NCBI GenBank assembly: GCA_902500055.1
Contig: GCA_902500055.1_4131.1
Length of the DNA: 64,000 bases
Source of the DNA: Escherichia coli
Lineage (GTDB): Bacteria > Pseudomonadota > Gammaproteobacteria > Enterobacterales > Enterobacteriaceae
Reading direction: 5' to 3' (one strand)
Each line of letters opens with the position of its first letter. The stretch's first letter is position 1. This document shows positions 1 through 11,468 of this stretch, in pieces. A model generated the notes under the pieces. That model was given only the letters and a program-made list of their open reading frames with translations, made no database searches and was not told where the DNA came from. The translations under genes and the position numbers were made by a program.

Positions 1-839
1 CTAATACTTTCCAACAAGGATATACTGACTGGGCTGTGTATTTCACTGGTATAGATGTTACCCAAATTAAAAAAATGTTATGTGGTTATACAGCATTTAC
101 ATTAATGAAAGACGGAACACTTTATGGAAGAGGATGGAATCGAAGTGGTTCATTAGGTTTAGGACATAAAAATTATGTTTCAGCGTGGACTGTACTTGAC
201 ACTAATGTGGATAATATATTTGGCGGTTACCTTGGCGATACATTGTTTAAGATTAAAAACGATGGAACTGTATATGGTTCAGGTTCAAATAACAGCTTTC
301 AAGTTAAAGCAACATCGGGTGATGCAACCACATTTGTTCCGTTGTTTGATGATATATCTTATGATATAAAATGCAGTTTTGTTTCTGGTGTTGGTTTTGT
401 AATGATAACATCTGATAATAAAATATATGCAACTGGAACTACTTTTGCTGGTAGTGGTGCACATAGTAAAGTTTTTGATGTTGGTTTTACTATAGGTGAT
501 ATGAGTAATATATATCATCCTGATTCGTTGGACTATTCGACTAGTGTTGTATTTTTAATTAATGCAGATACAAACAAACTAATAGCAACTGGGCATACCC
601 CATTTACGGGAAGTAGTTCAAGTTCCCTTCCATATTTTACAGCATTTCAAGAATTCAATTTTACATCGTTCAATTCGAATACACGATATAGTGGGTCTTT
701 ATACTGGAATACATTTTACGAAGGTAATAATGTATGGATGAATGGATATAATCCTAAAAATACGGGTGGAAAGAATTTCTCATTGTGTTCAATACCGTTA
801 GATACTATTATTACTAAGCAAATTGATTTACCTTTTTGA
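1..839 (+). CDS. RCC1-like repeat protein, C-terminal part (5' end lies upstream of window)
   Basis: Frame open to base 1 with no upstream stop; GxxGxLGLG-type repeats; paralog of downstream array genes. Confidence 0.7.
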   Translation, partial: NTFQQGYTDWAVYFTGIDVTQIKKMLCGYTAFTLMKDGTLYGRGWNRSGSLGLGHKNYVSAWTVLDTNVDNIFGGYLGDTLFKIKNDGTVYGSGSNNSFQVKATSGDATTFVPLFDDISYDIKCSFVSGVGFVMITSDNKIYATGTTFAGSGAHSKVFDVGFTIGDMSNIYHPDSLDYSTSVVFLINADTNKLIATGHTPFTGSSSSSLPYFTAFQEFNFTSFNSNTRYSGSLYWNTFYEGNNVWMNGYNPKNTGGKNFSLCSIPLDTIITKQIDLPF

Positions 840-846
840 ATACTAT

Positions 847-911
847 GCCAGTACTCAAGTACTGGCTTTTATTTTTGATTAAATATAGTATAATGAATAA
901 AGGAGGGAAAT
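847..911 (+). promoter_or_regulatory. Array leader cassette 1: hairpin gccagtactcaagtactggc + T-run (terminator), TATAAT box 889..894, SD aaggagg
   Basis: Near-identical copies precede most array genes. Confidence 0.6.
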
Positions 912-2105
912 ATGTTACCTTTTGCTAGAATGGTTAAATACGGGAATAAACTGCCTATTCCTGATCCAGTTGAGTTCACTGATGTTTTACAGCAACATTA
1001 TACTAATGCTATGTATCTACATAAGCCCACGAATACACTATACGGTTATGGTGGTAATAACTTGAGCCAATTAGGTCTAGGGAATCGATCGGCAGTTTCT
1101 ACTTTTACAGTACTGGCAACGCACTGTGCAGCCTTTTGGTTAGGCGTTCATGGATCATTGATGATTGACTTGGATAATAGAATATATTTCACAGGGAATA
1201 CAGTAGCATTCCCCGATTATGGAGATGCAACTCCAGTTAATGGTTATTTTAGAACATGGACTGATGTTACTGCCGCATTTAACAAAATAAATGTACACGC
1301 TAATTTAATCAAGAGTGTACATATAGGTGAAAGTACTAGAATATTACTACACGATGGAAGAGTCGTTGTTTGTGGTAAAAATGCAAATGCCGAATGTGGA
1401 ACAGGTAACCAAAATCCCATTCCAGTACTAACAGTTGTTACTGGTATGGGTGAAGTTTCTCAATTGGCGTGTTCATTACAGGGTACGCACTATCTCAAAA
1501 CAAATAAAGAAGCATGGTTTTGTGGTAAGGATAACTTTGGTGAAAGTGGTGGTGGGACTAGCTCATACGTTTTTACTAATAAATTAATACGAACCAACGT
1601 CGATTATATAAGTACTACTTATGATGTTACCTGGTGGTTTACTGCCGGTAGGGTGTACTGGAGTGGTAGAAACAATTCTGGACAAGCTGGGAATGGTACT
1701 ACTTCAACTACAAACCAATTAACTACAGTTCAGAATTCACAGGTTATAGTGAATATTAGTGATGGTTTCCTGTGTCCTAGTAATATGGGTAACTCAACAA
1801 TTGGTGCACCTATGGCTCAATACCCATCATATGTCAGGAGTGCAGGCATCAATACATATGGTCAAGAAGGGACGGGAAATACAACAATAATTACTTCGTG
1901 GGGGGCGTTTTCTTTAAGTGCGATACAGGGTGGATATGACAATGTTCTTATGGCATCCAAAGACTGGTCCAGAACAATAATTATAACTAAAGATTATAAA
2001 TTATATGCATGTGGGGGCTTTAACGGTTCAGGTAGTAAATTACCGGATGGTACTTACTTAATTAAAACATTAACATTAATGCCAACGCAGTTATGGCAAT
2101 CATAG
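912..2105 (+). CDS. RCC1-like repeat protein, array paralog (N-term MLPFARMVKYGN)
   Basis: ORF 397 aa; SD 6 nt upstream; repeated G-N-x-x-G-Q-L-G motifs. Confidence 0.8.
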   Translation: MLPFARMVKYGNKLPIPDPVEFTDVLQQHYTNAMYLHKPTNTLYGYGGNNLSQLGLGNRSAVSTFTVLATHCAAFWLGVHGSLMIDLDNRIYFTGNTVAFPDYGDATPVNGYFRTWTDVTAAFNKINVHANLIKSVHIGESTRILLHDGRVVVCGKNANAECGTGNQNPIPVLTVVTGMGEVSQLACSLQGTHYLKTNKEAWFCGKDNFGESGGGTSSYVFTNKLIRTNVDYISTTYDVTWWFTAGRVYWSGRNNSGQAGNGTTSTTNQLTTVQNSQVIVNISDGFLCPSNMGNSTIGAPMAQYPSYVRSAGINTYGQEGTGNTTIITSWGAFSLSAIQGGYDNVLMASKDWSRTIIITKDYKLYACGGFNGSGSKLPDGTYLIKTLTLMPTQLWQS

Positions 2106-2114
2106 GAGAAAATC

Positions 2115-8966: not shown

Positions 8967-8973
8967 ATTTTAT

Positions 8974-9037
8974 GCCAGTACTTAACACTGGCTTTTCTTT
9001 TTGATTAAATATAGTATAATGAATAAAGGAGGATTTT
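8974..9037 (+). promoter_or_regulatory. Array leader cassette 7
   Basis: gccagtacttaacactggc hairpin + conserved box + SD. Confidence 0.6.
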
Positions 9038-10243
9038 ATGTTACCTTTTCCAAGGATGTTAAAATACGCAAATAAAATGAAAGTTCCTGAAGTGAAAGAA
9101 ATCTTTATGTACAATGGTTATAGTGCGTCAGTTATTCCAGCAACAGCACTCTTACTATTATATAAAAATGGAGACTTAATGGGTATAGGTGGAACTAGTT
9201 CACAAAACTATGGATTCGGAAATGGTGTACCTAATGCGAAAGTAAAAGAGTGGGCTTTAATATACCAAAATGTAAAACGTTTTAGAACAGCCCAAGGTTC
9301 TTTTAATTTAATCCAAACCGAAGATAATAAATTTTATTACAGTGGCGTAGGTAGAGCTATTGGTACAGGATTAAGTACTGTCAGTACTTATACTGATTGT
9401 ACTTCATATTTTACATCAGTATTCAATGCAACACAATTGTCGCAAATTAAGGACATTCAAATTGTAGGGGAGGGTATTTTTGTTTTACTTCAAAATGGTA
9501 CGCTATATGGAATGGGGGCCAATACACAGGGATATTTTGGTAATAACACAACCACAAGATTATCAACATTTACTTCAATTAATACGAATGTGGATAGTGT
9601 AAAAACAGGTTCAAGTGCAGTGATTGTGCAGAAAATTGATAAAACACTTTGGGTCACTGGTCAAAACACATGGGGTTCACTTGGTATAAGTAATGGTGAA
9701 ACTAACATTAGAGTATGGACACAAATGGGTGCATTAGCCAACAATACTGTTATACATTATGAACTTGGTGGGAGTGCATCATGGGTTGTATCTAAACACA
9801 ACACGAATAATACATATACAGTTCGTGCAAGTGGGATTCAATCGGAAGGTAACTTGGGTAATAGTTCAGCCGCTTCATCAGGGACAGTATTATCTACAAT
9901 CTCCACTCTACCAATATCAGATAATATGGAAATGAAATCAAATTCATTAACATATGGTGGGCTTACGGTTAAAACTAACAATTCACTTTATATGTGTGGT
10001 ATAAACACATATGGTAGGCTCGGTCGCGGTAATACCACATCAAGTACTACATTTGTAGTTCCAGTTGATGCACCTAAAGTTGGCAGCATCGAGTTATTCT
10101 GTCCAAGTGAATGTACAAATGTGTATATGGATAATCAAGGGGATGTGTATTTGAGTGGCTATATCCCACAAGCAGCAGGGACAACAGTTTCTGATTACTA
10201 CACTAAATTCCAATTATATCAAATACCCAGTCGTGGTATATAA
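9038..10243 (+). CDS. RCC1-like repeat protein, array paralog (MLPFPRMLKYAN)
   Basis: ORF 401 aa; conserved N-terminus. Confidence 0.8.
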   Translation: MLPFPRMLKYANKMKVPEVKEIFMYNGYSASVIPATALLLLYKNGDLMGIGGTSSQNYGFGNGVPNAKVKEWALIYQNVKRFRTAQGSFNLIQTEDNKFYYSGVGRAIGTGLSTVSTYTDCTSYFTSVFNATQLSQIKDIQIVGEGIFVLLQNGTLYGMGANTQGYFGNNTTTRLSTFTSINTNVDSVKTGSSAVIVQKIDKTLWVTGQNTWGSLGISNGETNIRVWTQMGALANNTVIHYELGGSASWVVSKHNTNNTYTVRASGIQSEGNLGNSSAASSGTVLSTISTLPISDNMEMKSNSLTYGGLTVKTNNSLYMCGINTYGRLGRGNTTSSTTFVVPVDAPKVGSIELFCPSECTNVYMDNQGDVYLSGYIPQAAGTTVSDYYTKFQLYQIPSRGI

Positions 10244-10315
10244 AAAAAATGCCAGTATTTTGTACTGGCATTTTTTTGTCCTAAATATAATAACGATTTA
10301 CATTTGGAGGATACA
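10244..10315 (+). promoter_or_regulatory. Degenerate leader cassette 8 (A-run, hairpin gccagtattttgtactggc, T-run; diverged box; SD ggagg)
   Basis: Hairpin flanked by A- and T-runs; partial similarity to other leaders. Confidence 0.5.
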
Positions 10316-11468
10316 ATGCTACCCTTTGGAAGAATTATCACATCATCAAAAAAGAACATACAACCTTCTGTAACAAAAATAGCTTCATCTGATACAACAG
10401 TTTTTGCCCTTATGTCAGATGGTACGTTGTACAGTAGAGGCTCTCAAGAGTTTGGGCAAATGGGTATAGGTAATATTATAACACAAACCAAATGGGTTTT
10501 GTGCAATACAAACGTAGAAGATATATGGGTGCGGGTATGAGTCAACCTTAATAAAAAAGAAAGATAATACGATGTGGTACGCTGGAAATGGTGCATCATT
10601 CGGATTATCAACTGATAAGTCAACAACATGGGCTTCTGCAAAGATAGTGTTTGATAGAATAACCGCCCTAGGCAAAACAATAAAACAAATTGCAGTTAGT
10701 GCAGGTGCATTAAGCGTATTATGCACAGACAACACTATATGGAATACGGGCTATGGTAGTTATGGTCAACTGGGAAATGGTAGAAGTACCGATTCACTTT
10801 CATCATTTGTACAAGGAACAGTACCTACTGGAGTAACACCATCCAAAATACTGGCAAATTTTCTTATGCAAGGATTTATTGGAACCGATGGGAGATTGTA
10901 TTATACTGGTGCAATATCAGGCGTAGGTACAACCGACATGACGTTATATTCAAAGTACACGTTATGTTCTCAAATAACTAATACCTATACGGTGAAAGAT
11001 TATACAACAAACTCAAGTTACTTCGCTTTTGCTATAGCAAGTAATAATAGTAGTAATAAATTATTTGCATATCATGGTGGTGGACAATACTTTGGTCAGT
11101 TAGCAAATGGTTCTACATCACAAACATATATTTCGTTAAGACAAACAACACAAGCACCAGGTGATATAATAAGAAGCAGTGTGGGTTATTCATATTTTTC
11201 TAATCATATTATAACTTCATTAGGTGTTTACGCAACTGGTTATAACACAGGCGATAACGCAGGTCAATTAGGTATAGGTACACAAACAGATGTCTCAGCC
11301 TATACCAAATGTGTACTACCAATAGAGATGAATATGAATAACGTATATGTTACAGCAACTTTATACAGAACTTACTTAACCGATGGTATACAAATTTACA
11401 GTACTGGACAATATGTTACAGACGGTGGAGTTGCCAGTACTGTATTTGTCAAAGATTCACCATTTTAG
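10316..11468 (+). pseudogene. Terminal array paralog (MLPFGRIITSS) interrupted by a +1 frame change near 10530..10540
   Basis: Frame of 10316 stops at TGA 10538..10540; frame +1 open from 10518 to 11468 and continues the paralog-like sequence. Confidence 0.55.

Follow-up and report, generated by a model that had tools for sequence, protein, structure and literature searches.

The DNA considered here is a stretch of 64,000 nucleotides (nt), referred to throughout as 'the window', from an assembly assigned to Escherichia coli (GenBank GCA_902500055.1). Positions 1-11468 take in the greater part of an 'RCC1' gene array, that of a jumbo coliphage of the 121Q/PBECO4 type (Asteriusvirus). We lean, somewhat better than evenly, towards reading this locus as hypervariable, its genes shuffled by recombination and encoding binding proteins that attach to the virion and dock by way of a common N-terminal leader.

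According to this proposal, each gene would comprise a flexible leader of ~18 residues (the first 12 conserved, MLPFxRMxKYGN) followed by a domain of a ligand-binding type. Each gene, or gene pair, would form its own transcription unit, bordered by a 'cassette' made up of a terminator hairpin, a phage-type promoter and a Shine–Dalgarno (SD) sequence. The cassette would stop transcription of the previous gene and start that of the next, so that any gene lying between two cassettes would be expressed. Together with the leader codons, it amounts to ~100 bp that are nearly the same at all junctions, a substrate for homologous recombination. Recombination at these junctions would delete, insert or replace whole genes, and during co-infection would import them from other lineages. 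Because the homology reaches into the coding sequence, every exchange would yield an in-frame, correctly tagged protein. Up to this point the proposal rests on evidence in the sequence. Once made, all products would be brought by their leaders to one shared place on the particle, and there the variable domain would serve as a binding module for host-surface or environmental ligands.

The identity of the locus is clear from its surroundings. The flank (11500-36000) is 97–98% identical to Escherichia phages phAPEC6, SP27, 121Q, PBECO4, G17 and other Asteriusvirus, which are jumbo myoviruses of ~350 kb. For positions 1-11500, the best single record in a database comparison covers 36%, and none reaches 80% in one place. 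In the relatives, the array is bordered upstream by a divergently transcribed run of genes for proteins of ~60 amino acids (aa), and downstream by a convergent gene, the counterpart of window 11449-12111. The window therefore opens inside the array, without its first gene or genes (at least one). The divergent ~60-aa genes are numerous directly 5' of the array (genes 249-265 in 121Q; L002 15859-19695), and occupy the same position in other relatives.

As the initial annotation had it, there are ten consecutive plus-strand genes in 1-11468: one cut by the window edge, eight intact and the last frame-split. Eight of the ten are RCC1-like propeller genes, intact or cut only by the edge; one is the decaying, frame-split copy, and one is not RCC1-like. 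Counted from the conserved MLPF start, the proteins are 245–401 aa long. The upper lengths given earlier, 375–415 aa, came from upstream alternative starts. The features, all on the plus strand (+), are:

3-839 (+): RCC1-like gene, 3' part, 279 codons, the 40th type; frame open from base 3 to the window edge; PF25390 E 3e-8
840-911 (+): cassette; hairpin 847-866 with T-run (-13.2 kcal/mol, z -4.8), promoter-like TAAATATAGTATAAT 880-894, GGAGG 902-906
912-2105 (+): RCC1-like gene, type P, 397 aa; leader MLPFARMVKYGN
2115-3224 (+): RCC1-like gene, type A, 369 aa; directly after the upstream gene, no cassette
3225-3295 (+): cassette; hairpin 3228-3253, promoter-like part 3265-3279, SD
3296-4465 (+): RCC1-like gene, type M, 389 aa; phAPEC6 counterpart gp003
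4466-4536 (+): cassette; hairpin, promoter-like part, 26-nt core
4537-5727 (+): RCC1-like gene, type B, 396 aa (RCC1 profile match, clustering)
5728-5799 (+): cassette, one mismatch in the 26-nt core (core scan, hairpin fold)
5800-6537 (+): type E, 245 aa; leader, TNF-like beta-sandwich and glycine-rich domain, non-RCC1
6538-6608 (+): cassette; hairpin, promoter-like part, 26-nt core
6609-7718 (+): RCC1-like gene, type I, 369 aa; phAPEC6 counterpart gp009
7719-7796 (+): cassette; hairpin, promoter-like part, 26-nt core
7797-8966 (+): RCC1-like gene, type F, 389 aa; phAPEC6 counterpart gp010; dN/dS 0.05–0.10
8967-9037 (+): cassette with a weaker hairpin, -8.6 kcal/mol (core scan, RNA fold)
9038-10243 (+): RCC1-like gene, type J, 401 aa (RCC1 profile match, clustering)
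10244-10315 (+): degenerate cassette; hairpin retained (-17.2 kcal/mol), promoter-like part diverged
10316-11468 (+): last RCC1-like gene, frame-split, in pieces 10316-10540 and 10572-11468; degenerate leader MLPFGRIITSSK

The type letters come from a comparison of 14 Asteriusvirus genomes, whose 150 array proteins were clustered at ≥75% identity over 80% of length. CMSTMSU was left out, its record being marked unverified and containing many broken frames. The raw count for phAPEC6 was 16; types Y and N are repeated at the ends of that record, which is 2.4 kb over the stated genome, and were counted once. Copy number proved not to be fixed. The genomes carry 8–15 array genes each, of 39 types in all (40 with the window gene at 3-839, whose closest relative, by blastp against all array proteins, comes from EJP2 and is 63% identical), and their combinations differ. 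Type A is present in 14 of 14. A loose gene order is retained despite insertion, loss and replacement:

Window: (new) P A M B E I F J
121Q: C N A G B E Z D K I
G17: Q H A M C N B E O S K F
UB: Q A L B E D O T K F J
fEgEco12: C U V W P A a D B E I b c d e

The junctions are where the arrays part company. We defined homology blocks by ≥88% identity, and a junction zone as running from the upstream stop codon to ~60 nt into the next gene. Such zones make up 10.4% of the array and contain 45 of the 52 block ends (binomial p = 3e-37), or 16 of 20 when only distinct ends are counted; the block ends outside them are deletions inside the decaying last gene. The suggestion that the repeated unit provides homology for recombination is supported. 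Individual genes also differ in age. Compared with fEgEco12, in which the backbone is ~87% identical, gene P is 99.3% identical at the nucleotide level with a synonymous divergence (dS) of 0.011, and dS rises from 0.016 for gene I to 0.05 for E, 0.145 for B and 0.248 for A. Compared with 121Q (backbone 97.6% identical), genes A and B are 88–90% identical and E is 99.5% identical. Since neighbouring genes differ in age relative to the backbone, single cassettes have been exchanged between lineages, rather than diverging in place; the variation of the array arises from gene swapping. The genes are maintained by purifying selection, because the ratio of nonsynonymous to synonymous divergence (dN/dS) within types is low, 0.05–0.56, with one exception of 1.36 in a near-identical pair (E versus JP4).

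The cassette itself has a regular anatomy. Reading through a junction, there comes first the hairpin, GCCAGTAC-loop-GTACTGGC, with its T-run, then the promoter-like TAAATATAGTATAAT, and then GAATAAAGGAGG, with the ATG 3–4 nt farther on. There are seven copies of a 26-nt core, AAATATAGTATAATGAATAAAGGAGG, each with no more than one mismatch, where shuffles predict 0.00, and the rest of the 64 kb has none. The hairpin, CCAGTAY-N2-8-RTACTGG, occurs eight times (0.00 expected), folds in RNA with energies of -8.6 to -17.2 kcal/mol (z -3.6 to -6.3), and is followed each time by a U-run, as the initial annotation had recognized. Of the eight near-identical units described there, seven are full cassettes; the eighth junction (10244-10315) keeps the hairpin, its promoter part being degenerate, and there is no cassette at 2105/2115. 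Genes directly behind another gene, such as 2115-3224, have neither hairpin nor promoter part, and the gene that opens each array is preceded by the promoter part and no hairpin. The architecture extends to more distant phages: EJP2 has a variant cassette of the same layout, and Salmonella phage Munch retains TTAAATATAGTATAAT and hairpins with the same CAGTAC...GTACTG core. This stem core is constant across genera in which the proteins are only ~25% identical, and the outer pairs co-vary (window 847-866 and other cassettes, among them the cassette-type hairpins at L017 2653-2725, 6204-6277, 8226-8302 and 11886-11961). A plain terminator needs no fixed stem sequence, and so the hairpin may have a second role. 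Outside the array, another plus-strand hairpin with a T-run, CCAGTACT...AGTACTGG, lies at 12124-12147 between two minus-strand genes. No Rfam family matched positions 1-12500.

The promoter-like part has a perfect TATAAT and no -35 element. A sigma-70 scan found 52 sites where 63.9 were expected, and so no enrichment. The sole other good match to the motif in the window, TAAATACGTTATAAT at 40448-40462, lies 22 nt upstream of 40485-41639, a lone plus-strand gene in a minus-strand region whose sequence is 99% identical to phAPEC6 gp077. The motif TAAATA-N3-TATAAT is therefore common to the array cassettes and to the upstream region of the gp077-type gene, and gp077 is a virion protein, detected by 10 peptides (PMC7247149). 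The TAAATA core also stands before other virion genes, including those of the major capsid and the baseplate; in phAPEC6, (T)ATAAATA precedes the major capsid gene by 35–45 nt, and likewise gp226, 228, 231, 232, 238, 242 and 245. That phage has a gene for a gp55-like late sigma factor. We call the array promoter 'late-like' because it shares the TAAATA core and not the full octamer. The RaK2 paper describes no promoter motifs.

The leader is the second constant element. The initial annotation held that all ten proteins begin with a near-invariant MLPFxRMxKYGN. The motif, as MLPFxR[ML]xxY[GA]N, is present at eight of the nine starts visible in the window; the ninth, that of the last gene, is degenerate (MLPFGRIITSSK), and the start of the first gene lies outside. 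Beyond the window, the N-terminus reads MLPF[AVGPT]R[ML]x[KDNE]Y[GA]N in all 39 array types, which are otherwise ~20–25% identical to one another. Related leaders head genes in other Rak2-like phages. In Munch, 17 consecutive genes start MIPFxRILxYGN, fourteen of them RCC1-like; the other three encode a glycine-rich protein, a Laminin_G_3 protein (36.7 bits, the cut-off being 27.6) and an unclassified one. Leader genes number five in Yersinia phage fHe-Yen9-04 (MLPFPIIS...) and three in Xanthomonas phage XaC1 (MFPIPIIS.YGN). Pectobacterium phage CBB has ten: the glycine-rich gp144, which sits among nucleotide-metabolism genes, and a cluster of nine, in which three genes code for Kelch propellers, two for Laminin_G_3 proteins and four for unclassified proteins. 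A profile of 29 leader regions retrieved only three short fragments from the database searched. Homologues of the glycine-rich protein in other phage groups start MLELL or MIELL, and so the N-terminus is a lineage-specific module, exchanged independently of the domain behind it.

The codons of the leader are fixed as well. Leu2 is TTA in 39 of 39 types and Pro3 is CCT in 39 of 39, whereas CCT stands at 30% in the gene bodies; Gly11 takes GGG or GGA, with GGT at 60% in the bodies. Fixed synonymous codons are to be expected if the leader codons form part of the recombining unit.

Behind the leader, most members are beta-propellers. PF25390 is matched by nine of the ten genes, with E-values from 1e-9 to 7e-23 (3e-8 for the partial gene at 3-839) and scores of 34–82 bits, under Pfam's 150-bit cut-off; PF13540 (RCC1_2) or PF00415 (RCC1) exceed their own cut-offs in six array genes. 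The paralogs are only 19–26% identical overall to the first one, as highly diverged as had been noted, with M1, L2, P3, F4 and R6 invariant. An AlphaFold2 model of 2115-3224, built from an alignment of 20 homologues, is an all-beta repeat protein with a mean predicted local distance difference test score (pLDDT) of 85.5 and a predicted template modelling score (pTM) of 0.86. With Foldseek, it superposes on seven-bladed RCC1-like propellers, best on UVR8 (template modelling score, TM, 0.80; E 2e-22), and also on RPGR, HERC1/2 and RCC1. Its sequence profile finds the RCC1-like domain (RLD) of HERC1 first in the PDB (E 1e-25); the matches include no structure from a phage. Together with the variability of the arrays, this model supports the earlier description of the locus as a diversified repertoire of binding proteins rather than an ordinary duplication. 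The array proteins have the seven-bladed fold and repeat signature in common with eukaryotic RCC1, UVR8, HERC and RPGR domains, whereas their sequences are only ~17% identical. The RCC1 name comes from a eukaryotic Ran exchange factor; to our knowledge bacteria have no Ran, and hence no such partner, which counts against a chromosome-condensing role deduced from the name.

The claim that all ten proteins are RCC1-like fails for one, the 245-aa product of 5800-6537. It is glycine-rich, has no RCC1 or other Pfam match, and its profile has no match in the PDB, although many of its database homologues carry PF21722. Its structure model combines a TNF-like beta-sandwich with a polyglycine lattice fold of the Pam3 gp24 / ALK glycine-rich domain (GRD) type. 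By fold analogy, the type E protein resembles external tail-fibre and tail-tip proteins (Pam3 gp24, Bxb1 tail-tip proteins), and in Pam3 the part that is TNF-like and rich in glycine is described as the receptor-recognising end of the fibre (PMC9608196). In both models (2115-3224 and 5800-6537) the leader, the first ~18 residues, has a pLDDT of 45–68 and no secondary structure; it is predicted to be a disordered appendage outside the fold. Over the 150 array proteins, the median isoelectric point (pI) is 6.7 (range 5.0–9.2), ~12% of residues are charged, and sizes are 24–43 kDa. Ser, Thr and Asn together account for 26–32% of residues in the RCC1-like members, and for 20% in the glycine-rich one. 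The near-neutral pI and S/T/N-rich composition make for a poor fit to a DNA-condensing role.

Published mass spectrometry (MS) places most of these proteins in virions, the check that the initial annotation had called for. The phAPEC6 virion proteome includes gp003, 005, 006, 007, 009, 010, 549 and 551, all RCC1-like (PMC7247149, Table 1), and gp003, gp009 and gp010 are, by position and clustering, the counterparts of 3296-4465, 6609-7718 and 7797-8966. In the phAPEC6 record, full-length array genes of types A and B are unannotated and the glycine-rich gene appears only as the 100-aa fragment gp004 (L001 2434-3543, 6063-7253 and 7325-8056), so that types A, B and E could not have been detected there. 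In CBB, eight of the ten leader proteins are in the virion proteome (CBB_144, 536, 537, 548, 549, 551, 552 and 553), with coverage of up to 50.7%; the RCC1-like gp001 of GAP32 is a virion protein too (PMC5259590). The suggestion of a common anchoring or targeting module is strengthened by the finding of one leader on unrelated folds and of its bearers in virions. From the MS data, a disordered leader on five kinds of domain, and folds of the adhesin type, we infer that all of these proteins would dock at one common site on the particle, and that their variable domains would bind ligands at the host surface or in the environment.

The array as such has already been published, and is less new than the initial annotation assumed. 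'Eleven RCC1-like proteins', several in the virion proteome, were reported for phAPEC6 (Wagemans et al. 2020, PMC7247149), and multiple RCC1-like copies in 121Q and PBECO4 were noted in the CBB paper (PMC5259590). These are the same genes, and in both papers the function proposed was DNA condensation. Neither mentions the shared leader, the cassette, the non-RCC1 members, shuffling between genomes, or the link to the Kelch/Laminin-G cluster of CBB, and in the searchable literature we found no paper describing the leader, the mixed-fold membership or the shuffling. What we put forward is the combination of shuffling by regulatory cassettes with anchor-tagged virion binding proteins, whose function is plausible and unproven.

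Several points weigh against it. All comparisons within types except one give a dN/dS under 1, and so there is no signature of diversifying selection on binding surfaces. In class and timing, the promoter can be called late-like only provisionally; its motif departs from the exact (T)ATAAATA that precedes the major capsid gene. As for the leader codons, their fixity could come from a constraint on translation starts instead of recombination. Peptide counts in phAPEC6 are low, 1–5 peptides with 3–17% coverage (PMC7247149), so that each array protein may be rare or loosely bound. MS, finally, is blind to external versus internal placement, and an external location would rest on fold analogy.

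One alternative, which we think unlikely yet take most seriously, makes the leader a packaging signal for proteins carried inside the particle as cargo of the head or tail lumen and ejected into the cell with the DNA, such as a variable anti-defence arsenal, in the manner of T4 internal proteins, with their capsid-targeting sequence, or of the cargo of extracellular contractile injection systems (eCIS), with its N-terminal loading signals. Virion association by MS, and a short, conserved, disordered leader at the N-termini of otherwise unrelated proteins, would suit cargo. So would the hyperplasticity of the array between close relatives, which is also said of the T4 internal protein (IP) locus. 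The inner body of phAPEC6, moreover, has no protein assigned to it (PMC7247149). What tells against cargo is the nature of the proteins. No conserved Glu-type prohead-protease site, (L/I)xE, follows the leader, several types, A and M among them, lacking Glu altogether in residues 1–26, and for want of a cleavage motif a capsid-targeting reading of the T4 type was dropped as first choice. At 24–43 kDa, near neutral and rich in S, T and N, they are not small and basic; their folds are of the lectin or adhesin type, including Laminin_G_3 and Kelch in CBB, with a glycine-rich member that is like external tail-fibre and tail-tip proteins; and their low peptide counts are unlike those of a bulk inner-body component.

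An improbable alternative is ordinary tandem duplication and divergence, in which leader and cassette are kept for expression only, nothing docks, and detection in virions reflects sticky, abundant late proteins. The fixed leader codons (TTA 39/39, CCT 39/39), as a constraint at the nucleotide level, and the low virion peptide counts can be read this way. A purely regulatory account of the leader fails, however: its protein sequence is conserved in further genera where codons and cassettes are different (MIPF in Munch, MFPIP in XaC1), and also on CBB genes that have no cassette, gp144 for example. Eight of ten CBB leader proteins in virions, with coverage as high as 50.7%, sit poorly with stickiness, and the mosaic ages and breakpoints indicate exchange beyond divergence in place.

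That the array encodes DNA-condensation or inner-body proteins organising the packaged genome, as the database label has it and as the phAPEC6 authors suggested for these virion proteins (PMC7247149), seems to us very improbable: the fold does bear the name 'regulator of chromosome condensation', but a median pI of 6.7 with ~12% charged residues, 8–15 genes of varying types among phages of the same capsid and genome size (unexpected for a structural DNA organiser), and adhesin-like, Kelch and Laminin_G_3 domains behind the same leader all speak against it.

Returning to shuffled, leader-docked binding proteins, the idea can be taken a step further, though only tentatively. The leader may be a general 'display tag' of Rak2-like jumbo phages, and the domains that bear it may be mounted on a common receptor site, where they might form or decorate the hair-like fibres of 121Q, phAPEC6 and CBB. 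In phAPEC6 and 121Q, such fibres are present on head and sheath and have no protein assigned to them; for CBB, the authors named the virion proteins that GAP32 lacks as candidates for the tail hairs (PMC5259590). Five of the six CBB virion proteins missing from GAP32 carry the leader, with which the display-tag idea is consistent. If it is true, these phages would embody a natural, recombination-driven form of phage display of interchangeable lectin-like modules. The reading as docked binding proteins itself supplies concrete candidates for the unexplained hairs and decorations of these phages, and with the 12-residue tag one could mount binding domains of choice on a therapeutic phage of large size. 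It would also put a testable function in place of the misleading label 'DNA condensation protein', which has spread over dozens of jumbo-phage genomes and is at odds with the evidence.

The end of the array, and some other parts of the window, call for brief comment. In the last gene there is a +1 frame change near 10536: the first frame ends ...DIWVRV*, and the next goes on GYESTLIKKKDNTMWYAG.... The split is annotated likewise in 121Q, UB, CRJP21 and slurp01, and first open reading frames (ORFs) of 74 aa point to the same split in PBECO4 and SD-15_S21; JP4, SP27, G17 and phAPEC6 have, in its place, a deletion of 10456-11178. This gene is either a decaying copy, or else one that needs a frameshift. 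Beyond the array, on the minus strand, seven back-to-back ORFs of 104–141 aa at 12154-14593 are all strongly hydrophobic; blastp (1e-5) found no similarity among them, and they are not detectable paralogs. Five ORFs of ~55–60 aa at 52130-54485, also on the minus strand, are paralogous.

Three known systems bear comparison with the array. T4 internal proteins have a short conserved N-terminal leader on unrelated virion proteins, and their locus varies between relatives. The array differs in having no protease site after the leader, and in encoding proteins that are larger, neutral and of lectin-type fold. The closest precedent for the cassettes is the promoter early stem-loop (PeSL) of T4-like phages (Arbiol et al. 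2010, PMC2839356; Comeau et al. 2014, PMC4122927). Both are short units of terminator hairpin and promoter placed between non-essential genes in hyperplastic regions, and in both the ends of indels and replacements between close relatives fall within the units. The PeSL promoter matches the sigma-70 early consensus, whereas that of the array has no -35 and shares its core with the virion-gene motif; homology in the array cassette, unlike that of PeSLs, runs into the coding region through the leader codons; and the array's cargo is a single functional class of virion proteins, where that of PeSLs is assorted ORFans. If our reading is right, the principle of the PeSL, by which a regulatory cassette doubles as a recombination site, would extend from early ORFans of T4-like phages to the virion genes of another group. 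For the proteins, the nearest likeness is to branched systems of receptor-binding proteins (RBPs) with N-terminal anchors or docking peptides, such as CBA120 TSP1-4, RaK2 gp526-534 and KP32-type RBP2 (PMC10253068, PMC6872550, PMC13352976). There, as here, a conserved N-terminus precedes a variable C-terminal specificity module, several such proteins occur per particle, and modules are exchanged between phages. The array leader, by contrast, is only ~12–18 residues long, is predicted to be disordered, and may attach at a site other than the baseplate; and what it carries are monomer-type propellers and lectin-like domains, in place of trimeric beta-helix depolymerases.

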